Virus record (IMG/VR): IMGVR_UViG_3300037453_000505
DNA length: 64,000 bases
From: a virus
Taxonomy: Duplodnaviria; Heunggongvirae; Uroviricota; Caudoviricetes
Direction: 5' to 3' (one strand)
A program made the position numbers and the translations under genes. The number at the start of each line of letters is the position of its first letter. Position 1 is the first letter of the stretch. Positions 10,799-58,165 of the stretch are shown here, in pieces. The notes below the pieces were generated by a model, which worked only from the letters and a program-made list of their open reading frames with translations, was not told where the DNA came from and ran no database searches.

Positions 10799-10875
10799 GC
10801 GGGTGTGACGTAATTGGTATAGCGTAGCAGACTTCAGCTCTGCCCGTACGGGTTCAAGTCCCGTCGCCCGCTCCA
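10799..10875 (+). tRNA. tRNA-Gly with anticodon UCA, which reads TGA codons.
   Basis: Acceptor gcgggtg/cgcccgc with discriminator U and an encoded CCA. Anticodon stem gcaga/tctgc with loop ctTCAgc. T-arm acggg-ttcaagt-cccgt. The GCGGG acceptor plus U73 are glycine identity elements. Confidence 0.75.
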
Positions 10876-10953: not shown

Positions 10954-10956
10954 TAT

Positions 10957-11028
10957 GTACCAGTAGCTCAATGGTAGAGCAGTTGGCTGTTAACCAATTG
11001 GTTATAGGTTCGAGCCCTATCTGGTGCG
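10957..11028 (+). tRNA. tRNA-Asn (anticodon GUU).
   Basis: Acceptor gtaccag/ctggtgc, D-arm gctc-aatggta-gagc, anticodon loop ctGTTaa, T-arm atagg-ttcgagc-cctat. Confidence 0.75.
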
Positions 11029-11035
11029 GGATATT

Positions 11036-11112
11036 GTGAGTGTAGCTCAATTAGTTAGAGCGCTTGTTTGTGGAACAAGAGGTTGGGAGTGCGATTCTCC
11101 TCACTCACCCCA
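11036..11112 (+). tRNA. tRNA-His (anticodon GUG); no G-1 is encoded in the genome.
   Basis: Perfect acceptor gtgagtg/cactcac with discriminator C and an encoded CCA. Anticodon loop ttGTGga. The base at position -1 is T. Confidence 0.7.
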
Positions 11113-11118
11113 ATTTAT

Positions 11119-11189
11119 GGCGGTATCGTTTTATGCAGGTAAGACGGCCTGGTAATGGCAGAAATGTGGTGCAAGTCCCTTTGCCGCCC
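11119..11189 (+). ncRNA. tRNA-sized structured element of unresolved identity; possibly a degenerate or atypical tRNA.
   Basis: A 7-bp terminal stem ggcggta/tgccgcc encloses 57 nt with internal hairpins (gtttta-tgcagg-taagac; gcc-tggtaat-ggc). I could not fold a canonical D/anticodon/T cloverleaf by hand. It sits between tRNA-His and tRNA-Arg. Confidence 0.3.
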
Positions 11190-11193
11190 CTAT

Positions 11194-11267
11194 GTCCCCA
11201 TAGCATAATTGGATAATGCAACAGCCTTCTAAGCTGTGGATTGGTGGTTCGAGCCCACCTGGGGATA
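11194..11267 (+). tRNA. tRNA-Arg (anticodon UCU).
   Basis: Acceptor gtcccca/tggggat, D-arm gcat-aattggata-atgc, anticodon stem acagc/gctgt with loop ctTCTaa, T-arm ggtgg-ttcgagc-ccacc. Confidence 0.75.
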
Positions 11268-11290
11268 ATTTAGATTTAATTATTATAAAA

Positions 11291-13471
11291 ATGAGAACAT
11301 TACTATTATTTAGATGAGCACCTTGATGTGGAAAGTCTACATTTATAAAAGAACATTGATTAGAACCATACACTTTATGTGCAGATACTTTTAGAATGTT
11401 GTATTCTTCTCCTACATTATATGTAAATGGAGAGGTACATATTCCACAAAATGTAAATGGTGTCGCTTGGGATAACTTATTCTCTTGTCTAGAATATAGA
11501 ATGCAAAATGGAGAGTTTACAGTTATCGATGCTACAAATTCTAAAACTGTGGAGATGAATAAATATAAGAAACTAGCTGATGAATATAGATATAGACTTT
11601 ACATTGTCGATATGACAGATATTCCTATCGAAGAAGTAAAGAGAAGGAACAAACTTAGACCAGAATGGAAATGGGTACCAGAAGAAGCTATTGATAATAT
11701 GTACTCTAGATTTTCTACACAAAAAATTCCTAGCTGAATTAAAGTAATCAAACCAGAAGAGGTAAATGATTTATTAAGATGGAGAGCTGTAGAAATTCCA
11801 GACACATATAAAGAGGTAGTACACATAGGAGATATCCATTGATGTTATGAAACATTAATGTCTGCTCTACCTAATGGAATTGAAGAAGATAAATTCTATA
11901 TATTCCTATGAGATTATTATGAAAGAGGTCCAGAAGATGTAAAGACTTTAGACTTTATGGAAAGTATAATAGATTTGCCTAATGTTGTATGTCTAGAATG
12001 AAATCACGAAACTCATTTATGGACTTACGGTATAGGTAAAATCCCTAGAAGTAAACACTTTATGGGATATACTGTGAATGAATTAATCGAATGAGGATGG
12101 GATGCAAAAAGAATGAGAATATTTATGAAGAAATTACTTCAATGTTATTACTATACTTTCAAAGGTAAAACTGTTTTATGTACTCATTGATGAATAAGTA
12201 ATTCTAATTTTGAAGAATTGTTCCCATTAGGGTTAACTTGTCTTGCTACAATAGATTTAATTCATTGAGTAGGTTCTTACAATGATACTTGAGAATGTGA
12301 CAGTAACTTTGCTAAAGGAGATATATTAAGCTGTCACTGACATAGAAATATTGAAGATAAACAAATAGAATGAATAGCTAACCTAGAATGATGAGTTGAA
12401 TGGGGAAAAGAATTAAGAGTTGCTATACTAAATGATAAATTAGAAATAGTTAAATATCCATACAAAGATAGAATACCTTCTAAAGAAGAATTCTTCTGAG
12501 TGAAACAAGATATAACTGTGAAACAATTTATTGAGAGCTTAAGAAAAAATAAGTATATCAATGAAAAAAATGTGCAGTGAAATATAAGTAGCTTTAACTT
12601 TACTAGATGAGCTTTTAGCAGAAGCCATTGGGATAGAGAAACAGTTAAGGCTAGATGATTATTCATTAATACTAATACCTATAAGATAGTTGCTAGAGCT
12701 TATAATAAGTTCTTCAATGTAGATGAACAAAAGAGCACAATGCTATTTAGTATAGGACAAAATGCTCACTTCCCTATCGTTGGGTATAAGAAATATAATG
12801 GGTATTTGTGAATAATTTGATACGATGAAGAAAGTGATGAGTTAGTATTCACAAGTAAATCTGAAGTGGGTTGACCTCACGCTCAACGACTTAAAGAAAT
12901 AGTTATAGAGAAAGGTATAGACTTAGATAAGGTAAAAGACTATTTAAAAGAAAACTTTTGTTCATTAGTCTTTGAGGTAATTGACCCTGTGAATGATGCA
13001 CATATTATTAAGTATACTGAAAGAGATGTAATTCTATTAGATTGTGTAAAGAATACTATTAACTTTGAGAAACTAGATTATAATAGTCTATTAAAGTTAG
13101 GAGAAATACTTTGATTCACAGTGAAAGAAAAGTTAGTAGAGTTAAAAGATATGGTGGAGCTAAGAGAATGTATAGATGAATTACTTAATCCTAATTCAGA
13201 ATACAATACTTGAACTCCTATTGAATGAATGGTATTTGTTGACAAAGATGACTTTATGTTTAAGCAGAAATGAGAATACTATCAGCAATGGAAAAAACTT
13301 AGAGCTTTGATATGAGTAGTAGCAAGATGACAAAACTTTACTCATACTTGAATGTTGACAAATCCAGAGATGAATGAGTTCTATTGATGGTTAAAGGAAC
13401 AGGCTTTAACTTGAGAAGAAAACATTATAGAGCTTAGAGATAAGTTCTATACTAACAAAGCTATGATTAGC
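11291..13471 (+). CDS. Trifunctional Pnkp-like RNA end-healing and sealing enzyme with kinase, metallophosphoesterase and ligase domains.
   Basis: About 727 aa under code 25. The N-terminus carries a P-loop, LLLFRGAPGCGKST, with the first Gly encoded by TGA, and VIDATN, which is kinase-like (compare T4 Pnk). The middle region has GDIHGCYETL...FLGDYYERGPEDVKTL...CLEGNHE, the calcineurin-like phosphoesterase motifs GDxHG / GDxxDRG / GNHE. The C-terminus has ligase motifs I (KYNGYLG), III (SLVFEVIDP), IV (EGMVFVDK) and V (FMFKQKGEYY). This is the domain order of bacterial Pnkp. Confidence 0.7.
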
Positions 13472-13604
13472 TAACATAGGGAGTCGTCCACCTAGGCACG
13501 GACGGATAATGTGGGGTATCACACTGTAAATATTGGCTTTAGTATTAGTAATGCGAAGTACAAACATTATGAGTAGTAAGGTTGATATGATATATCTCCC
13601 CTTT

Positions 13605-27679: not shown

Positions 27680-27712
27680 AAATCCCCTCGGAAAAGGGGA
27701 TTTTTATTATTG
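27680..27712. terminator. Bidirectional rho-independent terminator at the convergence point of the + and - arms.
   Basis: aaaaatcccctcggaaaaggggatttttat: an 8-bp GC-containing stem (atcccct/aggggat) with A/T runs on both sides. Confidence 0.7.
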
Positions 27713-29069
27713 TGTTATTTTATCTCGAAGTTTATTTGTTGTATCTCATTGGAAAGTCTTAGGCGCTATCATCTGTGCAGATAATGTAGTTCATCAGAAG
27801 ATAGATTGGAATTCTGTAGATTGGTCTCCAAATCACACAAATCTATAGTGTGCTGTATTATAAGGAGGCATTCATTGGTCATTTAACATAGAGCCCTGTC
27901 ATCTCCATCATAATGTGATTACATCTCCAGCTTCCAAATCTACAAGACAATCCATATTATATGTAGCCCAAGGTCAATCTAATTGACTACGTGCTTGGCT
28001 TTGTCAAGCAATAAATTCTTGTGGAGTAAATTGTACTGTACCTCATCATTCTGGGATAGATTTACCAACAGTTCAAGTAACAGATATTGTTCACATATTA
28101 TCTGTTTTAATTCAATTACCTCAATACATTATTGGGCTAATTGTATATCCTCAATGCTTTGCTGTAGATAATCAAGATACATATTGAAATACTTCTCTAG
28201 CTCAAGTAATTTTTAGAAATCATCTTCATAAGTTTAGGTAACATTCAGTTCAGACATTGAACTGTACTGTAAGTTGTCAAGTTATTCTATAATATCAACT
28301 TGCCTTAATTTTAATTCAGTTCCTTGTGGCTAATTCTGTATTTCAAGTACATCTATTCCAATCTCATTCAATAAAGTCTACTCTATCCATATTTCAACTC
28401 ACTGAATCAATAGTACATTGTCTTGTTAAGTCGTGGTCAAAACCTATACATACATTATTATCATAGAAAGTATTCTCTTTATCTGAAATCCATATTGTAT
28501 GTCATTCTGGTCAACCATAGCTAGTTGTGATTAGTTTAGAAGTATTATTGACTTTTATCTCAGGATAATCATATTCTGGACAATCATAATGGGCAGATAT
28601 TCTTATCTTACTATTACTTCAATCACAACCAACAGGTTCTATTGTAATATTTTCTCAAGCTTGTAGTTTTTGATTTAAATATCAAGGAGTGCTATCTCAA
28701 CTACAGGCTTTTACTTTTTCATCTGTAGAGCTGATTTTCCATCAACCTTTTATTCAACAATCCTCTCAATCAGCATAACAGTCGCTTGGGGGAGTAACTT
28801 CTGTCACTGTAATATTTTCTCAAGCTTTTACATATGTAGGCTTTGGACACTCTGCTGTAAGTTTAACTACACCACATTCGCTTGTATCTACAACAAGACA
28901 ATCATTAGTAGATTGAATATTTATTCAGCAGTTATCTTTGCAAGATTTTCAGCAGCAACTTGTGTTACAATCTTCTGCATCTAATATATCCACCTTTAAT
29001 ATTTCTCCATCGTCTGGGCAATTATTATTGCAAGGATTACAAGGAGATTTACATTTACAATCACTCATT
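27706..29069 (-). CDS. Cys-rich N-terminus with a Gly-rich body; a structural (fibre/receptor-binding-like) protein and the last gene of the - arm.
   Basis: MSDCKCKSPCNPCNNNCPDDGEILKV... then ...GGYTISPIMYGGNGIKTDNMGTISVTGTVGKSIPEGGGTVQF... Many TGA=Gly codons. Coordinates approximate. Confidence 0.35.
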
Positions 29070-29074
29070 GTTAT

Positions 29075-29449
29075 AATGTGTCTTTATAAAATTTACTTGT
29101 TTCATTAGAGAACAATTCTTTATTTCTATGTTTAGGCTTAACTAGTTCTTCTTTATAAAATACTCATCTTGGCAAAGAAAGAATAGCATAAAGCTCATCT
29201 CTAACTCATTCACCTAATACAGGTTCTCGTAGTTCTACCATTTTCTTTAATTGAAGGTGTGGTGCTTGAGCATCTCAAAAGAAATTATTAAGATGAACGT
29301 GGGTTCTCCTTTTTATCTTCTGCTTATTTATTGGGTTATTTATATCGTATCATTCGTGCCTTAAACATTTTCAAATAGTATGGTGAATATCTTCGGCCGT
29401 AGCATCGATAACTCTTTGTAGACGATATTCTTTCCCCTCAATAACCATT
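29075..29449 (-). CDS. Hypothetical protein.
   Basis: MVIEGKEYRLQRVIDATAEDIHHTIGKCLRHEGYDINNPINKQKIKRRTHVHLNNFFGDAQAP... Confidence 0.3.
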
Positions 29450-31404: not shown

Positions 31405-31746
31405 TTATTCCCCTTCAAAAGAAGGGCAATCTTTTCATATCATATATTTTCTAATTGAATTACAATGTACACATCTATCCCAAGGGGAATTCCCTAAGAA
31501 GACACAAGCTTTTGATGGGTTAACTGTTTGAATAAATCCCTCCACTTCGCTCTTCTTCTTTTTAGGAGAAGGCTGTTTTCTAGGGGTGTATTGCTCTTTA
31601 AGCTGATTAAACTCTTCTTCAGAGATTACCCCTGTTAGATATTCAAAAGCTGTATAGCTATCTATTTTTTCTGTAAGGGAATGTATCTCTTTAAGTTTCT
31701 CTCTCATTAGGTCTTTCGTTATTCCAAAATTAAGGAGGTCATTCAT
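31405..31746 (-). CDS. Hypothetical protein with a C-terminal C..C...C..C cluster.
   Basis: ORF-track 31435..31746 extends through a TGA: ...ACVFLGNSPWDRCVHCNSIRKYMIGKDCPSFEGE. It is followed by hairpins at 31395..31430. Confidence 0.35.
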
Positions 31747-31794
31747 AAAAGAAACCTGTTTATTGGTTGAGTTACATCAAGGACAACCTCAGCC

Positions 31795-32094
31795 TTTGCA
31801 AGAGCAACGGCAATTCTTATTACATAAGTTACAGTGCATTATTCTAATATTCATTCTAAAGCTTGTTGTTTCTTCGCTAGTTGATTTTGCCTAGCTCTAT
31901 TTTTCCTAATTACTGCTCTCTTTTCAGAGAATAAATTAGAATATTCTTTTCATTGGTCTGTTAATTGATATGTCCCAGGTTGAATGTTCCCATTCTTTAC
32001 CTGCTGATAATAAGCAATCCTTTTTGCATCAGCAAGGGAATATCCTCTTTGCTGGAGTTTCCATACTTGCCTACTGAAAATATTTCTAGCCATT
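31795..32094 (-). CDS. Small hypothetical protein.
   Basis: MARNIFSRQVWKLQQRGYSLADAKRIAYYQQVKNGNIQPGTYQLTDQGKEYSNLFSEKRAVIRKNRARQNQLAKKQQALEGILE. Confidence 0.3.
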
Positions 32095-34694: not shown

Positions 34695-35186
34695 GGGGTA
34701 AATTAGTCTGCATTAATGCTATCTAAGTAACTAGCTATAGCAATAGCATTGATTAAACTACCACTATCTAATCCTAGATATTTACAATCAATAGCTCCCA
34801 TAGCAGATACATATAATATGAATGCAGAATCTGTATTAGCTAATTCATCATCACAAGTTCCAGTCTCATCTACAGTTAATCCTTCATCAGTAACATATTT
34901 TTCAAAAGTATTACCTGCTTTAACTGCATTATAAAAAGGACGCAATTCTTCTCCAGCTCATTCTATAATCGTATTAGCATTAGCTTGTACTGTATCTGGG
35001 TCTGTTACATTTTGCATAAGTTCTGAAGTCGCAAATCGATTTTCTGCATAGCTTCTCATATCTCAAATTGTAGCATCTCAGCATCCACAATTCTCATTAG
35101 CATAACGCCAACAACTGAGAGTACGACATTGACAAGGCCCACAAGCCAACATTTCTTTCTTTCTATTACGAAGGAATTGTTTTAAT
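34695..35186 (-). CDS. Hypothetical protein with a Cys-rich N-terminus.
   Basis: MRQLKQFLRNRKKEMLACGPCQCRTLSCWRYANENCGCGDATIGDMRSYAENRFATSELMQN... includes ORF-track 34703..34945. Confidence 0.35.
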
Positions 35187-35375
35187 TGTCTCATTTACAA
35201 TTAATTTAATTATTAAAAATTAAACTCCTAGCTATCGGGGGAATAACTAGGAGCATAGAGAAATTACTTTCTCTATATTTAGATTATATATTTAAAGGTT
35301 TTTGCTATAACTTTTTCTAATTATATAAAAAGCCTCTCTATTAAAGAGAGACTTTTGAGGTTACGACATTTACTA

Positions 35376-36860: not shown

Positions 36861-36949
36861 TGCGCCGATTTTAATAATAAAAAACAGCGCTGTAAAGTTT
36901 TTCTGCCGGTTTCAAATCAAATTTCAAGAGATTTTACTATTTTATAGTG

Positions 36950-37618
36950 GCTCAGCAGGTATACTACCTCAGCTACCTCATCAACTACTATTAGGATTAT
37001 AGCTTCAATAATATTCTGCTGCAAAGTCATATCATCATCATTGAGAATATCACATAGTTTGCACAGTTGCTTTAAATTCGGTTCAAGTAGTTATGTAATA
37101 TACACAATCTGCAGCAAGTGATTGATAGATTTCAACTTTTCAACCGCTTGTACCTGATACATAAGTTCATCCAGATAGACTATGATAACATCCAGAACCT
37201 CACGAACTTCCGTTACTTCGGAATGTTCAAGTTATATGATAATATCAGGTGTATGGAGCAGTAAATAATGTATATGAAGAAGTTACATATGCTGCGGTTT
37301 GAGAATAACTTGTGGCTGTCATAGTAACAGGTATTACCTGAACAACATCACAAGTTGTGCTTGCACTTCACCGTCTAGCAGCACAAGTAATAGTACAGCT
37401 CCCAGGAGTGACACAAGTGACTAATCCTGTTTGACTTACTGTGGCTATACTTGTATCACTACTTGACCATATAAGCGTTTTATCCTGAGCGTCACTAGGA
37501 GATATTGTAGCTGTTAGTTGCTGTGTATCTCAAGCATCACGAAAGATAATCGCTTCATAGTCTAATACAATTGAAGAAATAGGCTTAATGTAGTAGTGAA
37601 AACTTAATACATTTCTCA
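36950..37618 (-). CDS. Bacterial Ig-like (Big_2) domain protein with a Gly-rich C-terminus; a structural or decoration protein.
   Basis: ...QQLTATISPSDAQDKTLIWSSSDTSIATVSQTGLVTCVTPGSCTITCAARRGSASTTCDVVQV... matches the Big_2 consensus (tatv-P ... vtWsSsd-siAtV ... G-v-a ... G-a-itat ... v-V). Confidence 0.55.
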
Positions 37619-37790
37619 TAATGGAATAATAATTATTATAAAATTACTTTACTGCAACATCTGAAACTATGGTTCAATTACTTCATCAACTTGAACTACT
37701 ACTAGAACTTGACGTAGACCTTCTTCAAGGGATATATTTTATTCAAGTTACTCATCACCATAGATTTCAGTTATTTGAGCTTTCTCGGCC

Positions 37791-39239
37791 TCTATTGGTT
37801 CTGATAAATGTATCAGATGAATAATAATTTCAAGGTCAATAATTACTTGCATCTACTTGTGTTGTACTTTGATTTGCTATTGTTCAAGTTCGTGGAAATC
37901 AATAGTTATTTCATCGTTGATAATACTTACCACAATTAGCCTCACTTAATGTATCTCCACTATTCCATACTGTAGTAGCTCACAAGTTTTTATCTGCTAT
38001 TGTTACCCAAGTTTGTCAGTCGCTACTTAAACTTATAAGTCAGTCTGTGCTACTCCAAAATATTCATCAGCTTTCTATACTTGTTCAATATAGTTTAGTC
38101 CAAGATGATGTAGGCACAGTTGGGGAATTCTTGAAACAACGGACAGAGAAAACGTAAGAACGGTAGTCGCTATTCTGGGGATTAAGAGCAGTCGAACTGA
38201 AGTATAGGTAGTAGGAGCGATTTGCATCGCTACGAGAAGAAGACCAATAGTACCCGCGGGTACCCTGACCGTCGATATTAGTAGTCAAGGGGTAACGTCT
38301 ACCAGCGAAAGGCAACTTCAACGCTATTCCAAAGTTAGTTCAATCAGAACTTCATCCACCTAAAGCTGTCCATATATCATATACAGCTTGCCACTCTGTA
38401 TTAAGTGGTACGTGAAACCCACTTGGACAAGGTCCCCTCATAGCAGAATAGTCCTTATAAGCGTGGAAAGTTCAAATCGCTCAATGAAGCTTCATATCAG
38501 GAGTTCCCCAAGTTCATTGGGTTACTCATCACCAAAGGTTATCATTTTGAACGGTACTCCAATCATAACTTCAAGTTCCTCTGAATGTATCACCCTCATA
38601 ATAATTTCAAGGTCAATAATTTGAAGCATCTACTCTAAAAGAAGTAGCAGGGATATTTCAACTATGTGCAAATCACAAATTATTACCTCGTTGATAAAAA
38701 TTACCACAGTTAGCATCTGTTAATGTATCTCATTGGTTATATACAGTTGTAGCTCATAGGTTTTTATCTTGTATCGTTATGGGATTTGTTCATACAGTTC
38801 AAGGAGAAATTGTTATAAGTCATAAAGCCTGATTTCGCCAAATTCACGTTTGTCAAATTCAAGGATTATATATTCTAGTCCAACTACTATCTGGTATTAC
38901 AGGCGCATCCTTGAAACAACGGATGGTAAACCCTGTAGAACGGTAGTTGCTCCACAGAGGGTCGATGCTAGACGAATTGAAGCCTAAACTATAGGCATAA
39001 TTAGCATTGTTCGGAGTAGAAGACCAGTAACCACCACGAGACCCCGCGCTGCTAACATTGCCGTCACTGTAGCTACGATATCCAGCCATAGGCATCTTTA
39101 AGTAAGTCCCCATAGTTGTGGCGTTCTGTGCCATTGAAAATGTAGAAGTAAGTATCCCACACAAAGCTGACCATTCACTCTGAAGTGGCACGTGAAACCC
39201 ATCTGGAGCTGGACCTTGTGTATCAAAATGTATTGCCAT
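37791..39239 (-). CDS. FISUMP (Fibrobacter succinogenes major paralogous domain, lectin-like) repeat protein of about 483 aa.
   Basis: ORF-track fragments 38859..39239 and 38085..38321 are joined by TGA=Gly into one frame, with a checked length of 1449 nt. It contains ...PAPDGFHVPLQSEW...GGYWSSTP...GFTIRCFKD, then ...ITIQDKNLGATTVYNQGDTLTDANCGNFYQRGNNLGF...CPSGFHVPLNTEW...GYYWSSS...SVRCFKN, then ...VTIADKNLGATTVWNSGD...CGKYYQRGNNYGFP... These are the FISUMP hallmarks IGNQxWMAENL, YGxLYNW, CPxGWHxPSxxEW, GYYWSST and GFSVRC. Confidence 0.65.
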
Positions 39240-39900: not shown

Positions 39901-39939
39901 ATCTTTAATTGTATAAACCATTTATAATTATAGAATTAT

Positions 39940-40991
39940 CTAAATAGATATGGATTTCGCCAAGGTAAATCCGTAAACGTTTTATTTGTTTTTAAAATTA
40001 CTCAACTTCATCATCAAGAAGTAAGTGGATAAATATATCATTTCTCATCTATAAATCAAACATCTCAATGAATGCTTGTATCATAAGGAGTAGCCTCTTG
40101 AGTAAGTAAAGTCATATTTCAAGATGTATCTATGTAATAATTATTACTTCCATATCAGCTTCAAGTTCCATTATTTGAATTCATTCATCAAGAAACAAAG
40201 TTTCATAGAAAATGAACATACCTATCTCAATATGCAGACCAAGAAGTTGAATTTGAATTTCCTACAAATCATTCATCTCAAGTTCATATCTTCTGAAAAC
40301 GTCACCATCAGTTATATCTAAATGCTCATCTATATAGTTTTCAATCAGGGCCAGCAAAACTATCATTACTACGTCTTGAGTTACTTCATCAAGTAAAATT
40401 AGTTATAGCATTAGTAGATGGATTTACATAAGCAGAATATCAACTTCAAGAAGTATCATTTCCGTTAGTTAAATAAGCACCTAAATGTCAATAATACATA
40501 TATCAACTACCTTGGTCTGTTCAAGATGTTCAGATTTTTGTAAAGGTTATATTGTCTCAATCGACAATACCTTTATAAATATCATATCAACTATTAGCCC
40601 ATACTACTCAAGGTTCTCAAGGTACTACAGATGTATAAGAGAAAGAAGATATTACATTTCATTGAAAGTCTAATATTCCTTTAGGAGTTAATATTCTATT
40701 ATCTCAGAAATATCGAATTCTAAGCCAGTTGTTAGGCATAGTTACAGATAATGTTTTAGATGTACTTGTGAGGTTGTCTAGATTTATGGTTCTCATAGTA
40801 TTAGAATTTTGCTGAAAATCTAATGCTGTTCTATTTCAAATATAAACCCCAGAATAAAATCTAAATCTACTTCAGCTATCTACAAAGTTTATGCTTCAAA
40901 TATCTGTAACTAGGTCCTGGTATTCCTGAAAGTTAGCTTCTGAATAATAATAATTTGGTTCAGGAATGTCTATATAAAGATGTATTGCCAT
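39940..40991 (-). CDS. Hypothetical Gly-rich tail-associated protein (about 350 aa).
   Basis: MAIHLYIDIPEPNYYYSEANFQEYQDLVTDIGSINFVDSGSRFRFYSGVYIGNRTALDFQQNSNTMRTINLDNLTSTSKTLSVTMPNNWLRIRYFGDNRILTPKGILDFQGN... Confidence 0.35.
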
Positions 40992-40998
40992 ATGATTA

Positions 40999-41695
40999 AT
41001 TATTTATATTAAAATCAATATTTTTTCTTTGTTTTATTAAAATATTCTAATGTTTCTTGGGCTGTTCGCTTCTTATTTTCTACTATTACATTATTTATCC
41101 ATCAATTTACTATTCAGCTTCAACCAGGCCTTCATCATATATATAAATCAGAGCTTCACGTAGTTAAACTAACTGACTTACTTCAAATTAAACTTCAATT
41201 AAGATATATCTCTACAGTGCTTCAATCGTAAGTTGCTACCATATTATATCGGTTTCAAGTAGAAAGAGTAGTAGAACTTTCTATGTCGGCTGAGGATGAA
41301 TATCAAGAAAAAGCATAGTAATATCCACCGTTATCTCATAGAGAATAAAAGCTATAATTACTTTCACTTCATCGACATACAGCAGTTCACCAATTACTAC
41401 CATCTATTGAATAATATTTAAATCGAAAACTCAATGTTCTTGGTCAGTTTCAAGTAATTACAGCACTAGATAACCCATATAACCTTCATCAATTAAGCCT
41501 CACACATTTTACCCCTCATTCTGTAACTAGGCTAACCGTTCAGGTAGTAGTTAAAGTGGCTCAACTTATTTTATCTTTGTAATCATCTGTTAACGGCAAA
41601 TATATTTTTGTGTTACTTCAAGGAAACCATCCTCAAGGATAAATCTCATTTTCAACTCAATTCACATATTTAAAGACATTCTTAATTTTAGGCAT
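40999..41695 (-). CDS. LamG / concanavalin-A-like lectin-fold protein; candidate receptor-binding module.
   Basis: MPKIKNVFKYVNGVENEIYPGGWFPGSNTKIYLPLTDDYKDKISGATLTTTGTVSLVTEGGVKCVRLNGGRLYGLSSAVITGNGPRTLSFRFKYYSIDGSNWGTAVCRGSESNYSFYSLGDNGGYYYAFSGYSSSADIESSTTLSTGNRYNMVATYDGSTVEIYLNGSLIGSKSVSLTTGSSDLYIGGRPGG... shows the LamG_3 pattern (SFRFK ... W ... ATYDG-T-x-IYLNG). Confidence 0.5.
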
Positions 41696-41710
41696 AGGGT
41701 TATTTATTTT

Positions 41711-42196
41711 TTAAGTTAAAACTGTTACTGTTTTTCAACTTGAACTTTCATAATAAGTTCAATCAACAGAGGTGTCCCAATAAGTTGTTCGACTATTTCA
41801 ATCTCAGCTACATTCTAATTTTACTCCTGTATAATATCTACTATCTCAATAATAATTCCAAAATGTTATGGTTTCTATTTTATAAATATCTCATAAATCA
41901 ACCTGTAACGTAGAAGCTCCACTAAATCATATATATGTCCCCGTTGGGGATTCACTACCATTTACCCATCTTGAAAGTGCTGTACTATCTTCCCTTGTTC
42001 AACTAATCGCTGTAACGGTTTTATTTAACGCTACATTGGTTCAGTTAACAAAACATTTTATTTGTACATAATGAGTAGAGGCATTTCTACTATTGCTTCA
42101 TAAAGATAGCCTAACATATCTATATCACTTATTTCAAGGATATATTTCTTTTTCTACCCCCCCCCCTCGAATTAATACCCTTTTGATTTTAGGCAT
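41711..42196 (-). CDS. Small discoidin (F5/8 type C)-like protein with an in-frame G10 homopolymer near its 5' end; candidate phase-variable receptor-binding module.
   Basis: MPKIKRVLIRGGGVEKEIYPGNKGYRYVRLSLGSNSRNASTHYVQIKCFVNGTNVALNKTVTAISGTREDSTALSRWVNGSESPTGTYIGFSGASTLQVDLGDIYKIETITFWNYYGDSRYYTGVKLECSGDGNSRTTYWDTSVDGTYYE... Codons 11 to 14 are GGG GGG GGG G, which is plus-strand C10 at 42157..42166. Confidence 0.5.
42157..42166 (-). repeat. Homopolymeric G10 (C10 on the + strand) tract inside the 5' coding region of the discoidin-like gene.
   Basis: Counted directly: tttctaCCCCCCCCCCtcga. It is the only long G/C homopolymer I noticed in this AT-rich window. Confidence 0.85.
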
Positions 42197-42262
42197 AAGA
42201 ATTATTAATTTCAAAATAAATATAGAGCCTACATAGAATTTTCTATATAGGCTCATCTTTTT

Positions 42263-44991
42263 TAATATGTCATATATGCAACGTTCTCATCATAGCTAGT
42301 TAATGCAGCATATTCTGCTTCAGTACCTACCCAGATTTGACTTATAGATGTAGTTGTTCAAGTTGTATTAGATGTGATAGCTCAACCTCATCATCCACCA
42401 CCTCATCATTCAGGTTGTAATTCAAGGTTACCTCATATAGCAAGGAAAACAAACTGGTCAATTCCATCTGCCGTAAGGGTTGTATCTGTTTCATAAGGGT
42501 TAGTCACATTTGTTCAAAGTGTCATTTCATATGCAGTACTTCAATTCTCAACTCTTAATATGTAAGTCTGTCAATCCTTAATTGTAGCTGGAGCATTTAC
42601 TGTAAAGTTCGCACTTGGAGTATATGTTGAAGCTAAGTCAAGAGTAATTGTTGCTCAAGTCTTTGCTTGCCATCAGAAATCACTATAAGACATATCTCAT
42701 CCTCAAGCTTGTGCTACAGCATCGTCTACATATTTCTTAGTAGCTGGACTTCAATCATATTCTGGAGTATAAGGCGAAGAATAATCTTGTCAAGTAGCTA
42801 AGAAATATCAAAGTGCTTGAGTTGATGTACTTACTGCAGAAACTGTTTTAGAACTTCAACTTCAAGTTAACGTAAATACTATACTTATATGATATATTCT
42901 ACTTCTATTACCTGTACCAGTCACATCTCAAGTAGCATAAGCTCTTAAAAATGTAGCTTTACTAGAAGATACCGAATATAATGTATATATATTATTACCA
43001 TAATCCAAAACTGGTGTTTTTCAAGCTTTATACCAATCATAAGCTGCGATAGCATTTGTTAAATCTGATGTGCTAGCTATTGAAAATACCTTAACATTAG
43101 TAGCATCAGCTTTCCCTGATATAGTTGTATCCATTGCAGATATCTTATCATATACAGCATTCTTAGAAGGAGCTTCAGTTGTTACTCAATCCCAGCTAGA
43201 ACCGTAAGCTGTATCTGAAACTTGACTTGGATAACTTATATTTACCTCTGTAATTCCTGTTACTTGACCTAAAGTGTTCGTTGTTATCTGTGGAACTTTT
43301 GTAGCAGAACCTTTTGAAGTATATGCTGTTTGTGCAGTTAAAGCATCTTGCTTTCAACCGATAGTCGTATCCATAGCATTAATCTTATCATACACAGCAT
43401 TCTTTGAAGGGGCGTGAGTTGTATCAGCATCCCATCCGCTTCAATATGCCGCATCAGATATTGCACTTGTTCATAACTTACCATTGAAAGTTTGCCAATC
43501 TGCACTACTTAAATATCAATCATTACTAGATGTAGCAGCTCAAAGTTTAGTTTGAATTGTTGTCTTAGTTTCGTCTCAAGTATTTGTGTTACTTGTGTTA
43601 GAAAGTTTTGTCCTTTCTGCAGAAGTAAGGAATAAATTAGTAGAACCTTGAGTAATAGCATCACTTGTTTGAGTAGATGTATTAAAATAATTAGTTAAAT
43701 CTACAGAAGTTTCTCATATCATTACCCAAGTATTATTTGAGTAGATATATTCTTCGTATTTATCTTGTCCACTTCAAACAGGTCAAAGCAAATATATTAT
43801 TGTTGTTTTAATATCTGTAGTAGGCAATGTAGCTACAACTTTAAATCAAGCAAAGTTTGCTACATAATCAGCTACTTCTTGTTTTGTGTATGTTTCACTT
43901 TTTGTATAATAATTTGTTAAGTCGCTTACAGCCTTAGTAATATATCCAGCATCATTAGTTAATGTAGATACATTATCTAAAGGTTGAACTGCAGAATTAG
44001 CTTTAGTTCTAATAGAACCCAAATCTGATATAGTATCTTGCTTTCAAGCTATCGTTGTATCCATAGCAGATATCTTATCATAGACAGCGTTCTTTGAAGG
44101 AGCTATACCTGTTATTCAATCCCAACTAGCGGCATAAGCATCATCTGAAACTGCTCATTGTGTAGCAGCAGATATATTATCGTCTACATATTTCTTTGTA
44201 GCAGGACTACCTGCATAAACAGGTGTATATGGAGTTGAGTAATCTGTAAGCGTGTCTAGATAACTTCCAGCTCAATTTCAACTTCCATAATTTATTCTAT
44301 TAACAGTTCAATTATTTGTTAGTATAAATATTTTATCAAGACTTAATGAACTAGCATCGCCCATTCCATTATCCAAACTCCTTAATCAAGGGAAGATGAA
44401 AGAAATTCAATTAGTAGAATATGTTCAAGAAAAAATATATAGTCATTTTCTTTCAACTGGGTCAGATGGAGTATAATATACTAATGGGTTCTTACCTGCA
44501 TCATACCAATCATAAATATCTTGTGCTGTAGTTAAATCTGATGTTCAATTTAGATAGAAAGTTTTTGTATCGCTTTCTGGGATGGTAACAGCTCAAGTGT
44601 CTCAGTTTACAGAAGTAACTCAACTATTACTAATAGTCATATTACCACTACCAAACGTTAACCCTATTCAAGTACCTGCCACTGCTTTAGCTGCAGTATT
44701 TCTTACAACTACAGACCAAGTTCAGTTAGAATTTAGTTTATAAACATAAACTTCGTCTAATTGATTAGCTGCGCTATTATGGTCGCTTCTACTTCTATAA
44801 TATTGAAATTCAACTTCAGTAGGAGTTGTGGCATCATTTACATATGCCATAAATGCTAGTCTAGTTTGACTTCACGTAGCAGGATTAGAATTAGAAGAAG
44901 CTCTACAATAAACTACTCCATTCTTATTATAAGCAGTTATGAAATCATTCCAAGTCGAACTACCATAAGAAAGAATAACCATATCATCCTG
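42263..44991 (-). CDS. Large tail-fibre protein C (about 909 aa) with three internal about 35-aa repeats of the motif SWD-x3-APSKNAVYDKI-x-AMDTTI-x-GK-x-DA.
   Basis: N-terminus MVILSYGSSTWNDFITAYNKNGVVYCRASSNSN... Repeats ...AYAASWDGITGIAPSKNAVYDKISAMDTTIAGKQD..., ...AAYGSGWDADTTHAPSKNAVYDKINAMDTTIGGKQDA..., and ...TAYGSSWDGVTTEAPSKNAVYDKISAMDTTISGKADA... The C-terminal module ...PSANFTVNAPATIKDGQTYILRVENGSTAYEMTL... is shared with gene B. The start may lie upstream at a non-ATG codon. Confidence 0.5.
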
Positions 44992-45087
44992 TTTAGCATC
45001 CAAGGCATTTTTCAAGTCTGTTTGGTCTGCTAATGTTCAAGAAATATTTCACCATTCTGCACTTGTTTGTGTATTAGAAATTACATT

Positions 45088-47453
45088 ATTAGCGTCAATA
45101 CTAATTCAAGTACCTGCTGTATAAGTTGTATCTGTAGATGAGATTATAAAATTACATCATTGTCATTGACTTACTCATCATCGAAGATTGTTGTTTGATG
45201 TGCTTGACCAATCCCAATCTGAATCTCCATAGCTCCTTGTTATGAATGTACTTGAACTATAATAATTTCAAGGTCAATAATTTGAAGCATCTACTTGCGT
45301 TGAAGAAGTTGTTATAGTTCAACTATGTGGGAATCAATAATTATTTCCCCGTTGATAGAAGTATCAACTATTAGCATCACTTACCTCATCTCAGCTATTC
45401 CATACTTGTGTCGCTCATAAGTTCTTATCTTGTATTGTATACCAAGCAACTCCGTCACCACTTATTGAAATTAATCCATCTATTGTATTATGGAATATTC
45501 AAGCACCTGCTGCTACTGAACTTCAATCATATAATGTTGTCCAACTATTATCTGGAAGAACAGGAGTGTTTTTAAAACAACGTATAGATGCTGCATTAGA
45601 ACGAGCTATACTTGTAACTCTTGCTGAACCACTACCAGCTGAAATACAGTAAGCATCATAAGAATCTGATGCTGTCGATGCCCAATAATATCAATATCAT
45701 TGACTAGAGACACTACCGTCCGTCATTCAACGCAAACCAGCAAGAGTCATTTTTAAATAGTCTCTCAAAGTTGTATGGTAAGAAGGCAAAGATAATGTAG
45801 TGAATAATATTAAAAGTAACGCATCCCACTCATCTTTAGTAGGTACGTGAAATCCACTAGGTGCGGGTCATTGTGTATCCCATCCACATCTTTCTTCAAT
45901 AGTGATATTATCTCCTGCAGTAAGTTCACCCTGCTTAGCATCTAAAGCATTCTTTAAATCTGTTTGGTCTGCTAATGTACCTATAATATTTCACCATTCT
46001 GCACTTGTCTGTGTATTTGAAATTACATTATTATTTGAAATTGATATTCCAGGTCAGGCTGTATATGTTGTATCTGTAGAGCTAATAGTCTTTCAATCTG
46101 CAGCGATTTGAATATTTGTTCAAGCTATTAATTCATCTTGTTTTCAGCTCCAAGTAGTTCTAAGCCCTGTGCTATCAGCTAAGTCTTTTATATCAAAGTC
46201 ACCTGCTACATAAGTTGTATCTGTAGCAGAGATTGTTTTTCAATCTGCCGCAATTTGAATATTTGTTCAAGCTATTAATGTATCTTGCTTTGTATTGTCG
46301 TGATAAGCATCTGTTATATATCAAGCATCATTAGTTAATTCACTAATATTATCATTAGGCTGAATAGCTGTATCAGCTAAAGTACCTTGTGTTGCTGTAG
46401 CAAATTCACTTACATCGTGAGTAACTATATCTCAATAAGTTGCTATTGTATCAGAAGCTGATTTACCCGCAGAAGCGTTACTTCTAATAGTAGATAAATC
46501 TGATATAGCATCTTGTTTTCAATTAAAGGTTGACCAATCTGTTGAAGTTAGGTAACCATCGTTAGAAGATGAAGCTGCTCAAAGTTTTGTCTTTATTGTA
46601 GCATTAGTTTCATCTCAAGTATTTGTTCAAGTTGTGTTTCATAATTTAGTTCTTTCTGCTGATGTTAGGAATAAGTTTGTTACTCATTCTGTAATGTCAT
46701 CTGCAGTTCAAGTTAGCTGACTTAAGCTATCTCAAGGTTGAATAGATGTAGCTCATAAAGCTGCGCCACTTCTAATGGTTGCTAAGTCAAAAATTGTATC
46801 TTGTTTTGTTGTTAATGCTTGTGTGATTACTCTGTTTTCTACAGGGTTAGTACTTACTGAAGACATAGCCGTATCAATAGCTATAGGTCTTTCTGTATTA
46901 ATAAGTAATAACCATTGAGTTCAATCATACGTATAAAAGTCTCAAACCTTTACAGTTTGTTGCTCAACTACAGTAGAAGCTAATCAAGCAGTATATTCGC
47001 TACCATCTGGACGATAGTTAGTTCATCATTGAGCAGCGACTACACTTACTACATAGTAATCTCAAGCACGATATTGATATGGGTTATCTACAGGATTAGT
47101 CATAGGTAATCAAGTAGTACAGTTCCAGTTAGAAAGATATCTTCATCTAGAACCTGCGTTCTGTATATATTCATACAAAACCTTTCATTGCTTTGCGGAT
47201 AGAGCATCTGTAGTAGAAGTCGAATATAAGTTATCCTCTACTCAAGGTACAGATATATCAACAGCCTTATTCTCGTCTGGAGTTAATGCTTCTCAATTAA
47301 CTTTTACAGTTTCAATTACATTAACCTGAGCTCAAGCTTCTATACTATTGATTTTCTCCATAACACTATCTTCTATGGCGAACTCCTTTTTCTCCTTCTG
47401 TATAGAGGTTTCATCTGCAAAATATTGTTGACGTGCTTTTGGCATCAATCATT
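45088..47453 (-). CDS. Large tail-fibre protein A (about 788 aa) with an N-terminal STSTTDALSAKQGK fibre motif, internal repeats and a C-terminal FISUMP lectin-like domain.
   Basis: N-terminus MPKARQQYFADETSIQKEKKEFAIEDSVMEKINSIEAGAQVNVIETVKVNGEALTPDENKAVDISVPGVEDNLYSTSTTDALSAKQGKVLYEY... The C-terminus contains ...PAPSGFHVP... and ...YTIQDKNLGATQVWNSGDEVSDANSGYFYQRGNNYGFP... An in-frame stop follows at about 45088. Confidence 0.45.
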
Positions 47454-47574
47454 TAGTTAAATATTTAAATAGTATCTATATTTAGATTATATTTTTCTTG
47501 CGTTTATCTATAACAAAATAGCCACACCTATACATTAAGTATAGATGTGACTAAAATGTATTTTAATAATAATC

Positions 47575-47920
47575 ATATATTGTACCTCAAATACTTCATT
47601 GACTTCAAGGAATCCATACTTTTAAGACATCTCACGCTGATGCTGTATATGGTCATAAAAAATATTCATCGTGATAAGTTCAAGAAGTGAAATAATAATT
47701 AAACATCTCTACATCATTTAATGATAGAGCATATCAGTGCATACTTCATACTTTTACAAATCAAAGTCATCTGAATGTATATGTAGTAGGTCAAGAAAAA
47801 TTTGTCGTATGTACAGTTCAATATTCTTTACAAGCTTTTGCGAAAGCTCACATTGAGGCTCACGAAACTGATATATTTTTTATAATGCTAGTATCTACTG
47901 AAATAGCATCACTCACTATT
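47575..47920 (-). CDS. Small Gly/Tyr-rich protein between tail-fibre genes B and A; possible fibre chaperone or assembly factor.
   Basis: MGAFAKACKEYGTVHTTNFSGPTTYTFRGLGFVKVGSMHGYALSLNDVEMFNYYFTSGTYHDEYFLGPYTASAGDVLKVWIPGSQGSIGGTIYDYY. Coordinates approximate. Confidence 0.25.
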
Positions 47921-47997
47921 CAAGTTATCTCTCACCAAAGATTATTATTATTTGAACTATCCCAACCAGATGGGCTGGTTGTTCTAATTATAAATGT

Positions 47998-50564
47998 GCT
48001 ATTATCATAATAATTTCAAGGTCAATAACTAGAAGCATCTACTTGTGTAGACGAAGTAGTTACAGTTCAAGTTCGTGGAAATCAATAGTTATTTCATCGC
48101 TGATAATATTTACCACAATTAGCTTCACTTAATGTATTTCAATTATTATATACCGTAGTAGCTCATAAGTTTTTATCGGCAATAGTTATCCAATTATTAC
48201 CATCACTAGATATAGAAATAATTCATAATGATGGGCTATGATATATTCAAGAATTTCAGCTGCCCTGATATAATACTGTCCAATTACTATTTGGACTTAT
48301 TGATATATCTTTAAATGGACGAATTGAATTTGCATCTGAACGCCTACTGAATTGAGTAGGGTTTACAATATCCCCGAATTCAATATTATAAGCAAACTCT
48401 TCACCAGCGTGTGTGGATGACCAATAATATCCAACGTGTTCTTGATTAAACTCGTGAGAATCTTCATACCAACGACTTCCTGCAAACGGTATTTTTAAAT
48501 AAGTTTTAAAATCGCTTCATCAATTAGAATTCCAAGCTCATAAACTTACTCACATATCATATAAAGTTACCCACTCATCTTTAGAGGGTATATGGAATCC
48601 ATCATCACAAGGTCATTGCATAGCTGAATAATCGTCTCATATTATTATTCACTTTCAAGCATTATAACTTGTTGCTTCTGGGTCTCCTGGTTGTAACTCT
48701 AAATTTCAGCCCACGGCTAGAAATACAAACTGGTCAATACCGTTTTCAGTTAATGTTAAATCTTCGTTATAAGGATTAGTTATATTTGTTCAGAGTGTCA
48801 TTGTATAAACTATTGCTCAATTTGTCACCCTTAATATATATCTCTGTCAATCCTTTATAGAAGATGGAGCATTGATAGTAAAATTCGCAGACGGAGTTAT
48901 TGAAGTAGATAAATCTAGAGTAACTGTAGCTCAAGATTTATTCTGGAAATTGAAATCATTATATTTCATATCTCCATCTCAAACAATTTCCCAACTATCT
49001 CAATCCCATACCTTTAATATATTATTAGTTGTATCATACCAAAGCTGTCAAGTAACTGGATTAGAAGGAGCTGTAGTTCAAGATGTTATAGCGTTTTTAA
49101 CTTTATCATCTACATATTTCTTTGTCGTAGGACTTCAGTCATAAGCTGGAGTATATGTAGGTCAATAGGCACTATAGTTTACATCTGTACTAAGGAATTT
49201 TACTAGCTTTTGATTTTCATATGTGATACTTGTAACTACATCACTAGAGTAGTTTAAATCTAATCTAGTATTATGTATTTGTGTATCTCAATCTGCACTC
49301 ATTACAGAATATCCTGTATAAGCTTCATAGAATGATAATTTATCTCAATTAAGATGTGAATCTGAAGTGAGATGAAAGTTTGTTGTCTCATCTGTTCAGA
49401 ATACAATTATAGGATTATTTCAAGCTTTCCAATAATCATACGCCGCCTGTGCCTGAGCTAAGTCTGTAGCATCAGCCTGTGAAGCAGACTTTATGTAGAA
49501 AGCTTTTACATTTGTATAAGTATCCACAGGAGTCCAACTTGTTCAATTATATATTTTTAATATATGATTAGTTGTATCGTACCACAATTGTCATTCTGTT
49601 GGATTTTGTGGAGCTGCGCTTCAAGAAGAAATAGTATCTCATATACTATCATCAACATATTGTTTATTAGCTATAACTGTAGTATCTACAGAAAATTCAC
49701 CAGAACTAAGATTTAATCAATATCAAGCTGTATATGTAGTATCTGTATCTATAATATCCCAACTTGTTCAGTTATATACTTTTAATAAATCATTAGTTGT
49801 ATCATACCAAAGCATTCATTCTGTCGCAGGAGAAGGGGCTGTAGGTCAAACATATTTACTTCATTCTATTGCGTCATTAATAGCTGAAGCAACTTCTCCT
49901 GCAGTTTGATACCCTATGTTATTTGTTAATTCTGTGATATTATCTCAAGGTTGAATAGATGTAGCTCATAAAGCTGCACCTGCCCTAATAGTAGATAAAT
50001 CAAGAATATTATCTTGTTTTGTAGTAAGAGCTAAATAAACAGCTCTATTCTCTACGGCGTTCCTAGATGTAGGAGATAATCCATCGTCTATAATTATTTC
50101 TTTTACTTTATTAACCTGTAGTAACCATTGATTTCAATCATAGATATAGAAATCATTTACATTAACTTCCTCTGTCTCAACAGTCTGACTTGCTACTCAA
50201 GGAGTGTATACACTTCAATGAGGGCGATAATTTAACTGTCAAGTAGGTGCAACTGTAGCAACTATATAATAGTCTCAAGTTGCATATGTATGAGGAGAGT
50301 CTACTGGGTCTGTTACTGGCAATCAAGTAGTACAATCCCAAGAAGATAAATATTTATTTAATCAAGTTATTGCATTTATCTGGTCTTGTAATGCCTTACC
50401 CATATTAGCAGATAAGGCATCAGTTGTAGACGTTGAATTAATGTTGTCAATAACCCCAGGAATATTGTTAATTTTTTCTTCAATTTCCTGGGTTAATTTA
50501 TTGACACGCTTTTCCTTATCTGTATACACTCAATCTCAATTATATATTAATCTTGCGTCTGCCA
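47998..50564 (-). CDS. Large tail-fibre protein B (about 855 aa); paralogue of A (N-terminus) and C (C-terminal module), ending in a FISUMP-like region.
   Basis: N-terminus MADARLIYNWDWVYTDKEKRVNKLTQEIEEKINNIPGVIDNINSTSTTDALSANMGKALQDQINAIT... The internal ...PSANFTINAPSSIKDGQIYILRVTNGAIVYTMTL... matches gene C. The FISUMP C-half (PDGFH..., GYW...) and module lie at about 48005..48640. The stop, TTA on the + strand, is at 47998..48000. Confidence 0.45.
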
Positions 50565-50593
50565 TATTGTGTATTTAGATTAAGGAATAAAAA

Positions 50594-56538: not shown

Positions 56539-56722
56539 TATTACACATAATATTAGTAATAACGCTATAAATATATAATATATTTATATTACTGATAAAT
56601 AAGAGAAATACAAGAGATGCTTAATTAATTAAAAGAAAAGGGAAGGCTAATTAAAGCCCTCCCATATTTGAAAGACTAGATTAGTCTAAAAATTCTACAT
56701 CATCTAATCCACATACTTCACA

Positions 56723-58165
56723 AGAGTTAAGTACGCATTTTCCAAAGTTCTTAATGAATCTATATGCTCCTTTATCAACTCACATCCATACTACAGCAAA
56801 TTTAACATCTCCAACAATCTTATTACATTCTCCGAGTTGAGCTCCGATATTATAAGGATTGTCTGGTAAGTATCTAAGCATAGGAGTTCCGTTCTTAATG
56901 CTTCCATTAATAGGTGCATTAGAAACAACTTTACCGTTAGTATCAACTACAGTATATTTTGGCTGGAATACTCCAACTTTATCTTCAGGGATTGTCAACA
57001 TTACAGAGAAGTCGAAGTCGTTAAGAATTGGAAGATATTTGAAAGTAATAGTTGTTCCAGCATATCTAATTCTTGGTAATCCAACATCGATATCATATTG
57101 ACTTCCATCTAAGAATCCAACATTTCCATAGTCTTGGAAATATCCTTGCATCATATGAAGTCCTTCCATAGCTTTCTTGTTCATAGCAACTGTTACGTTG
57201 TTTTTGTACATTCCAGAAATCATAGCTTTATTGATAACGATATCTAAGAAAGCTTGGATTTGATGTCTAGCGTTTGTACATTCAGAAGCTGATTCATCGC
57301 AGCATCCTTCAAGGTCGAAAGCAATCTTTAATCCATTTTCTTGTGCTTTAGCAAGAGCAGGGAAAAGTCCCATAGTCTCCCATTTGTATGTAGAGATTTG
57401 CATATTTCTATCATAGAAAGCTGCGTGTAAGAATTCTTTAATAGCTTCTACATCTCCTTTTCTGAACATAGCATCTACGATAGCTTGGATTCCTCCAGAG
57501 ATAAGGTAGTCTTTGTTCAAGTCACACCAATTGAATTCGTGAGAAATAGAGATAGTTCTGAAGAATGCAGAATAGTAATCCATTCCTCCTAATTCTACTG
57601 GATTGAAGATTTCAGTTGCACAACTTCTATCTCTTAAGTAAGCTCCTCTTCTAACTTTATCTCCTGCTTGTAATTGAACAGAAGGAGCTTCTTTCAAAGT
57701 AATAACATTTGTAGCAGAATTAACTGATTCAATGTATAATCCATTAACTGGATTTCCTCCTTGTCTCATAACTAAGATAGTTGAATCTCTATTAACTCCT
57801 CCTAATTTTTCAAGAGAAGCAACTTCAATTTCAGCTCCATTTACAGAAACGATTTCAGTCTCTTCACCACAAATTCTTGGTTCATACCAACCTACTTTAC
57901 AATCTCCATCTAACAAAGTCAATTCACTAGAAGCAGCTAAATTGTCTTTGAATTTATAAGTTACATATACTTCTCCTGTTGTAGGGTCTTTTTGAGGTAC
58001 TACATCGAAGAAAATAGTCTCATATCTTAGGAACTCTTCATATTGTCCCCAAGTTTCGAGAACTCTACCATTAGCATACAATGGGTTCAAAATGTCTTGG
58101 AAGCGAACTGATTTTTCAGATAAACCAGTAGCATCGCAAGGATTACAGCTTTGTGTGCTTGCCAT
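56723..58165 (-). CDS. Putative major capsid protein (about 480 aa), a highly expressed structural protein.
   Basis: This is the only ORF over 400 aa in the standard-code track (56780..58165). It has no internal TGA in 461 codons and extends 19 codons past a single TGA near the C-terminus. It lies directly downstream of the scaffold-like gene and portal candidate. It is preceded by AAAGGTG. Function is assigned by position, size and codon usage only. Confidence 0.45.

Follow-up and report, generated by a model that had tools for sequence, protein, structure and literature searches.

Putative circularly permuted FISUMP cassettes in a stand-alone protein and two tail fibres of a TGA-recoded tailed phage

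Domains of the Fib_succ_major/DUF1566 type form an established class of C-type-lectin-fold proteins targeted by diversity-generating retroelements, in Bacteroides phages among others (PMC5758913, PMC8143477), and lectin modules are also carried by modular type IV pilins such as PilB and PilC of Streptococcus sanguinis (PMC8179133, PMC9934059). Phages of Absconditabacteria and Gracilibacteria that use genetic code 25 have been described as well; tail fibres and lectins are unmentioned there (PMC10746230). Here we analysed a 64,000-nucleotide (nt) stretch of IMG/VR virus record IMGVR_UViG_3300037453_000505 (the window), in which four copies of a FISUMP-related cassette of ~237 amino acids (aa), U1 to U4, are encoded on the minus strand, two of them in tandem in a stand-alone protein and one in each of two tail fibres, A and B. 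Taking all parts of the interpretation together, we consider it probable that the window derives from a tailed phage that reads TGA as glycine, and that its cassettes are ligand-binding, circularly permuted versions of the long-form FISUMP domain (PF09603, TIGR02145).

The preliminary description of this locus had called the use of FISUMP domains in phage fibres apparently undescribed. This is too strong, since such domains are known as retroelement targets in Bacteroides phages (PMC8143477, PMC5758913) and uncultured Caudovirales proteins (A0A6J5N676, A0A6J5LVS1) already place FISUMP in phage genomes. While FISUMP in phages is thus known, what is new is the permuted order of the halves and the insertion into a fibre shaft in a code-25 phage; our literature search found no paper that deals with FISUMP domains in code-25 phages or with permuted phage lectin folds.

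Four coding cassettes read with TGA as glycine

The minus strand of 37791..39239 holds 31 in-frame TGA codons and neither TAA nor TAG, and under translation table 11 the region yields short open reading frames (ORFs) only. Once TGA is read as glycine, DKNLGAT, YQRGNN, GPGNYY and NLWGG are restored, and the FISUMP hallmark motifs originally quoted for this protein are all present on that strand. The four modules are real and coding, and they are visible solely with TGA as glycine (code 25). In the stand-alone gene and fibres A and B, TGA is used 208 times against 111 GGN codons, and in the alignment of the copies TGA faces a GGN glycine codon in 18 instances and TGG in 3. Moreover, the window encodes a tRNA with anticodon UCA that combines an acceptor stem GCG..CGC (G1:C72, C2:G71, G3:C70) with discriminator U73, which we take to be the bacterial glycine identity set. 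These elements support the view that this tRNA decodes the TGA codons, which would render all four cassettes translatable; a separate tRNA-Trp(CCA) is also encoded. Both TGA at glycine positions and a glycine-type tRNA(UCA), the features of code-25 membership, were accordingly found in the sequence. The tRNA(UCA) belongs to a cluster of seven tRNAs (10624-11268, plus strand) directly before a 752-aa polynucleotide kinase-phosphatase-RNA ligase fusion (11204-13474; phrog_8238, 692 bits), an arrangement that looks like a tRNA repair module next to tRNAs.

The stand-alone gene is longer than first described. A 483-aa protein at 37791..39239 had been assigned, whereas the true ORF passes the TGA after 37791 and is terminated by the TAA at 37644-37646, giving 531 aa. 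It is the stretch beyond 37791 that supplies the second cassette with its conserved NLWGG end.

Each cassette consists of a C-half, the GFHVP..YWSS..RCFK part, followed by an N-half, the DKNLGAT..YQRGNN..NLWGG part (Table 1). The C-half has the pattern xxGPxPxGFHVP..EW..LKxPxAGxR..GYYWSS..IRCFK and leads into a linker ending SWTxLY, and the N-half reads GIFxxxxGLISISxDGxxWxTIxDKNLGAT..CGxYYQRGNNYGF..VDASNYGPGNYY..NLWGG. In the whole window, the motifs DKNLGA, YQRGN, GFH[VI]P, YW[SA]S and [IV]R[CP]FK occur in four sets each, all on the minus strand, the only additional matches being two isolated ones, FWSST at 38060 within U2 and IRPIR at 2774. U1 to U4 align end to end and are 236-240 aa long. 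At the DNA level, a 264-nt repeat family is found at 37805, 38579, 45240 and 47988, and the N-half of U2 coincides with repeat D1 (37805-38068). The 23-mer ATAATAATTTCAAGGTCAATAAT occurs exactly at 37821, 38598 and 45259 and with one mismatch at 48007, compared to zero matches in 100 shuffles. The recurrence of four DNA modules, each paired with a GFHVP half, thus agrees with what had been noted before; they had also been called near-identical, which does not hold, as their DNA is 57-75% identical.

Pairwise identities of whole cassettes are 46-55% for amino acids and 57-61% for nucleotides. The N-half is the better conserved one (59-75% and 65-75%, respectively), and the C-half is more variable (36-49% and 45-55%). 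Because these identities are so moderate, the copies are best read as old paralogues. The rate of mismatches between copies is 0.50 at codon position 3 compared to 0.40 and 0.35 at the other two positions, and 298 of the 708 columns with identical residues use different codons, which shows that the modules are coding and disposes of the possibility that they are non-coding repeats.

A further possibility was that a diversity-generating retroelement uses the cassettes as its variable regions, since Fib_succ_major/DUF1566 domains are known retroelement targets in phages and the C-half is the more variable half. However, the copies differ at all three codon positions and in all four bases. The 64-kb window contains no reverse-transcriptase-like ORF, with every YxDD match falling into a fibre, portal or other protein, and repeat pairs with an adenine bias are absent from it. 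On these last two grounds the retroelement was rejected, and we regard this explanation as very improbable. In this respect the cassettes differ from the retroelement-target FISUMP/DUF1566 proteins of Bacteroides 'Bacuni' phages and from Legionella LdtA: no retroelement accompanies them in the window, and their diversity comes from paralogous copies and module shuffling.

Kinship with long-form FISUMP domains and order of the halves

Profile searches recovered the FISUMP family in the stand-alone protein above the curated cut-offs, with 48.0 bits for PF09603 (cut-off 33.9) and 65.4 bits for TIGR02145 (cut-off 41.65), as the preliminary description had proposed. On their own, fibres A and B reached 18.4 and 23.7 bits with PF09603, which is under the cut-off, yet the cassettes they carry share 46-55% identity with U1 and U2. 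Both profiles matched only with their positions ~59-187, on the GFHVP..RCFK half, and no whole FISUMP domain in profile order was found in the stand-alone protein. The N-half alone gave no match at E <= 10 against Pfam and NCBIfam profiles. The cysteine pair CPxGW..VRC is complete in U2; its first member is absent in U1 and U3 and its second in U4. When PDB sequences were searched with the protein and with a profile of the N-half, no match had an E-value below 0.29. Precomputed annotation reports a weak match to PF26707 (DUF8237) in some relatives, a family that also co-matches ordinary FISUMP proteins, and the best structural matches detected by Foldseek among viral models were FISUMP-annotated phage proteins (E 7e-5 and 8e-4). 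The cassettes would fall into the C-type-lectin-like group together with Lcl_C/DUF1566.

A negative result against a narrow set of short-form proteins first suggested that the N-half is unrelated to FISUMP. This was overturned by long-form proteins, which are low in tryptophan (apparently not TGA-recoded) and were found starting from one cellular relative. Many of them have PF09603 matches on record, and for a number of them the source record uses the name 'TIGR02145 family' or 'FISUMP domain-containing'. They share the pattern WMDRNLGA..YGDLYQWGR..(~50 aa)..NDNLWQG..NPCPSGYRLP..YYWSS..VRCLKD, and the Pfam profile crosses the DRNLGA/YQWGR stretch unbroken, as in P0216 (residues 268-448 on profile positions 5-187) and P0188 (residues 506-726 on positions 4-187). 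To compare both forms with hhalign, a profile of the phage family (173 cassettes, with Gly restored in place of Trp at 25 glycine columns) was used as query and 25 long-form FISUMP domains (<4% W, most with PF09603 matches on record) as template. The N-half aligned to template columns 1-82 with 99.4% probability (E 8e-22) and the C-half to columns 100-224 with 99.9% (E 2e-34). DKNLGAT and YQRGNN had been listed as FISUMP motifs at the outset, and this comparison bears the assignment out: they belong to the long form.

When the halves of the query were re-ordered to N then C, the alignment extended end to end over 189 columns (100%, E 8e-50), whereas in native order the C-half alone was aligned, over 106 columns (99.8%, E 5e-29). 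In BLAST comparisons with single SR1 proteins, the window halves matched in the opposite order to that in the phage; in one of these proteins (L011), residues 293-378 correspond to the N-half and residues 391-514 to the C-half. These comparisons indicate that the cassette is probably a circularly permuted long-form FISUMP domain: both halves are homologous to those of the long form and the motif set is common, while the halves are swapped. Standard profiles see 'half domains' because the cassette is permuted. The initial view of the protein as one complete domain flanked by half-domains describes its linear order correctly; as a building block it fails, the recurring unit being a C-half followed by an N-half.

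Searches of the databases gave 953 relatives at E <= 1e-3, and architectures were read in the best 120 of these 953. Among them a median of 142 aa separates GFHVP from DKNLGA (5th-95th percentile 137-153, n=174), and the halves are arranged as CN in 46, CNCN in 39, CNCNCN in 4, CNNC in 8 and CNCNNC in 4. An alternative register would join each N-half to the C-half behind it, so that the 531-aa protein contains one complete central domain and two orphan halves, and in the fibres domain swapping between the subunits of the trimer would complete the halves. Halves N1 and C2 in the centre do follow the normal order, their 116-aa spacing falls inside the range of cellular normal-order domains (94-118 aa), and pairing between chains is geometrically conceivable in trimeric fibres. 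However, all 46 single-cassette relatives have the C-then-N order, which in single-cassette fibres is the sole register possible within one chain, and the recurring fibre unit starts with ..DYSAMxGP and ends with NLWGG. Furthermore, P0003, the two-cassette relative closest to the window protein (59% identity), was modelled with AlphaFold2 at a mean predicted local distance difference test (pLDDT) score of 82.7. Confidence was low only at residues 1-11, 247-269 and 500-505, and the one internal segment among these is the N1-C2 linker, which separates the cassettes; in the model, the C-to-N linker supplies the opening strands of a beta-meander with four strands. A second model, of P0016 (C-N-N-C, 9 sequences), was uninformative (pLDDT 41). 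On balance, the normal-order register appears unlikely, and we favour the permuted C-then-N unit.

In the 173 phage cassettes, the GP[C]P cysteine and the VR[C]FK cysteine nearly exclude each other: both are present in 15, only the first in 71, only the second in 73 and neither in 5. The AN[C]G cysteine of the N-half is present in 82% of the cassettes. From this near-exclusive distribution and the frequent AN[C]G cysteine we argue that the two halves touch. The cellular normal-order proteins that we read keep the classic cysteine pair and lack the third (AN[C]G) cysteine. This suggests that the disulfide is re-wired in the permuted form, the CP..VRC pair of the long form being mostly replaced by a pair involving the other half. 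Some phage proteins end in a normal-order cassette with the direct junction NLRGNTTNTNVARKGPC, which is also found in a cellular pilin, and both half-orders occur within single phage proteins.

Lateral insertion into fibre shafts and the surrounding genes

Its gene content identifies the window as part of a tailed phage: a portal/adaptor (phrog_156/332), a tail-fibre-like gene and an RNA-ligase/kinase gene were detected, and profile matches and repeats revealed fibre repeat/tip domains and a repetitive shaft for genes A and B. The shaft repeat of fibre A, KQxELxAGxNIxI-AADGKT-ISxTDTTYxAG, occurs three times, at aa 386, 435 and 504. The last of these copies has EER-C[cassette]C-NF in place of its AADGKT turn, and U3 is bracketed by Cys520 and Cys764. 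U4 is located in fibre B between AGKGIIIGD and GIVSDAISVD and is followed by ~120 aa, and relatives show a like insertion, for example IEIKNG-[cassette]-VVTLNNAITNTGV. FISUMP domains had been placed at the fibre ends in the preliminary description, but U3 lies in the middle of its protein and U4 is sub-terminal (Table 1). The fibre cassettes thus are lateral shaft insertions rather than distal tips, an internal position that also distinguishes them from long-form FISUMP domains.

Table 1. Positions of the cassettes, of the genes that carry them and of the tRNA with anticodon UCA in the window
Feature	Position	Strand	Details and basis
Cassette U1	38520..39233	-	Stand-alone protein, aa 3-240; C-half ~38904-39233, N-half ~38520-38849; four-cassette alignment and motif positions
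Cassette U2	37746..38453	-	Stand-alone protein, aa 263-498; C-half ~38124-38453, N-half ~37746-38069; alignment
Cassette U3	45169..45888	-	Fibre A, aa 520-759; alignment
Cassette U4	47923..48633	-	Fibre B, aa 645-881; alignment
Stand-alone FISUMP gene	37647..39239	-	531 aa under code 25; two tandem, putatively permuted cassettes and a Ser-rich tail
Tail fibre gene A	42265..47445	-	1727 aa; PF22337 Phage_fiber_rpt, 35.3 bits, N-terminal; PF24243 Phage_tail_C, 28.9 bits, C-terminal
Tail fibre gene B	47566..50565	-	1000 aa; PF22337, 37.7 bits, N-terminal
tRNA, anticodon UCA	10799..10875	+	Glycine identity elements; ARAGORN and sequence

Three small minus-strand genes in the surroundings of the FISUMP gene (36942-37643, 41009-41710 and 41711-42295) encode further binding folds, with matches to Big_2 (61.8 bits), to Laminin_G_3 (53 bits) and to an F5/8-type-C-like domain (25 bits, which misses the cut-off); genes with these domains are located between and after genes A and B. 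Fibre A and genes 41009 and 41711 share the start MPK(I/A)K, and the FISUMP gene shares the start MAIH with gene 39936-41003 (repeat D14). Several late proteins encoded on the minus strand (27707-29083, 31405-31890, 34703-35194 and 56681-58165) have cysteine-rich starts (MSDCKCKSPCNPCNNNCP.., MASTQSCNPCD..), for which no accounting Pfam or PHROG match was found. At ~27600, GC skew and AT skew flip sign and the coding strand changes from plus to minus, which marks the boundary of an early/replication block and a late structural block. Positions 1-116 of the window form a 116-nt near-palindrome that is 85% self-complementary.

Relatives and proposed role

All of the best 120 relatives contain 7-13% Trp, which indicates that they stem from TGA-recoded contigs translated with code 4. 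In phage homologues elsewhere, the cassette is fused to fibre repeats, Phage_tail_C, Big_2 or LamG-like parts. P0003 (loci L032-L034 of ENA assemblies, with one sample name beginning STEW19) lies in a temperate-looking element that carries an integrase, an ERF recombinase, NinG and a glycosyltransferase. Megablast of 25 kb of the window against 50,697 phage records gave no match, and the only tblastn match was a distant FISUMP ORF, present in two phage records of 735 kb. The ORF of the 735-kb uncultured phage LR756501.1, an unannotated record (locus L007, 2800-3330), encodes 176 aa with a signal peptide and, unlike the cassettes, represents a short normal-form FISUMP (PF09603, 73.7 bits).

A scan of cellular genomes, with one genome per species, yielded 24 loci (L008-L031), all of them in TGA-recoded metagenome-assembled genomes labelled SR1 (MS502-49, BNUE01) or 'Candidatus Peribacteria' (JAISMG01, CAZMFL01, CAZXON01, CAZEFV01), save one labelled 'uncultured bacterium'. 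Per genome, these TGA-recoded Patescibacteria have up to 7 loci, with 5-7 in the four larger assemblies, and every cellular ORF contains in-frame TGA. Where both halves are present, the DKNLGA half precedes the GxHxP half without exception (26/26), and in 19 of the 24 matched ORFs the R[CP]F[KQE] motif lies a few residues from the stop. Eleven ORFs start with the type IV pilin N-methylation motif PF07963 (30-33 bits); in the cellular paralogues of ~400 aa, this motif is combined with a pilin body, and a long-form FISUMP domain occupies the C-terminus, and one SR1 ORF of >2784 aa has two such domains. Since the cellular FISUMP genes adjoin MutS or UvrA genes, they are considered chromosomal. 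The cassette's cellular relatives, 40-55% identical per half, thus resemble the modular pilins in their C-terminal position on PF07963 proteins; the difference from the phage proteins is that these SR1/Gracilibacteria-type proteins are cellular, keep the normal order and are encoded beside MutS/UvrA.

Identities between the window halves and cellular cassettes are 40-46% for the C-half and 41-55% for the N-half, whereas the N-halves of the window are 55-64% identical to those of phage normal-order cassettes. By these comparisons, the phage cassettes form a separate branch that holds both orders. A recent capture of the cassette from host pilins was also considered; it was rejected in view of the 40-55% identity and the grouping together of phage units of both orders.

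We propose that the permutation suits the cassette to its place in the fibre. In the normal long form, the part [DRNLGA..YQWG..NDNLWGG] is followed by [CPxGxHxP..YWSS..VRC]; in the phage, the second part would come first and the old termini would be joined via a short linker (..SWTKLY-G..-GIFW..). The cassette could then occupy the beta-hairpin turn of a shaft repeat, because its new termini would sit where the two parts meet in the normal form. Facing sideways from the trimeric fibres, and present in several copies on a separate protein, the cassettes would act as ligand-binding, probably glycan-binding, modules and mediate adsorption to the envelope of an SR1/Gracilibacteria-type host, with the variable C-half carrying specificity and the conserved N-half serving as scaffold. 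Genomic context and family point to receptor binding as the most likely function. Long-form FISUMP proteins likewise are an extracellular, paralogously expanded adhesin-like family, and Mtd of Bordetella phage BPP-1 would be a functional analogue.

Alternatively, the 531-aa protein might not be part of the virion and might act late in infection as a soluble or cell-associated lectin, for example in superinfection exclusion by receptor masking, in binding to pili or the envelope, or in cell aggregation. It opens with MAIHFDTQGPAPDGFHVP, the cassette beginning at the very start, has neither a fibre N-terminal repeat nor a recognisable virion-anchoring domain, and was assigned to no PHROGs family, and in cells, relatives of the cassette serve pilin-like proteins as adhesin modules. 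However, reading the sequence by eye revealed no signal peptide, nor the secretion or lipoprotein signal typical of cellular FISUMP members. Moreover, the gene stands in a same-strand late block directly after fibre and other binding-domain genes, and the fusion of homologues to fibre and other structural parts in other phages also speaks against this alternative, which we find doubtful. Our preferred interpretation remains that the cassettes are permuted receptor-binding modules. Besides the missing anchor and PHROG family, several points weigh against it: the packing of both halves into one globule is a prediction, the AlphaFold2 structure is that of a homologue carrying Trp at its TGA codons, the N1-to-C2 spacing overlaps that of cellular normal-order domains, in tandem proteins the register of N-half then C-half may apply, and the ligand and the host are predictions.

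A bolder proposal, to which we assign little likelihood, starts from the kinship with the hosts' pilins. The phage fibres would bear the adhesin family that SR1/Gracilibacteria-type hosts, which are episymbiotic or predatory, mount on pilin-like proteins, and would bind the same surface ligand, either on the host's attachment target or on the host coat. The permuted topology would have been selected for splicing into fibre hairpins, and the family would represent a natural series of permutation by duplication. If this were true, a ligand on the bacterium to which the host attaches would concentrate the phage where its host lives, and the series of normal-order, tandem and permuted forms would illustrate circular permutation by duplication.

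For the little-understood recognition of hosts by phages of TGA-recoded candidate-phyla-radiation bacteria, the cassette is a clear and abundant candidate module, with its 953 database relatives, the best 120 of which come from TGA-recoded contigs. Automatic annotation, often with code 4 and thus with Trp for Gly, misses the family because the permutation hides the whole domain. After recoding of TGA to a glycine codon, the cassette can be expressed and tested. Its kinship with the pilin-borne FISUMP domains of the host lineage provides a testable link between phage adsorption and host adhesion, and for protein evolution, normal, tandem and permuted forms are found side by side in one family.

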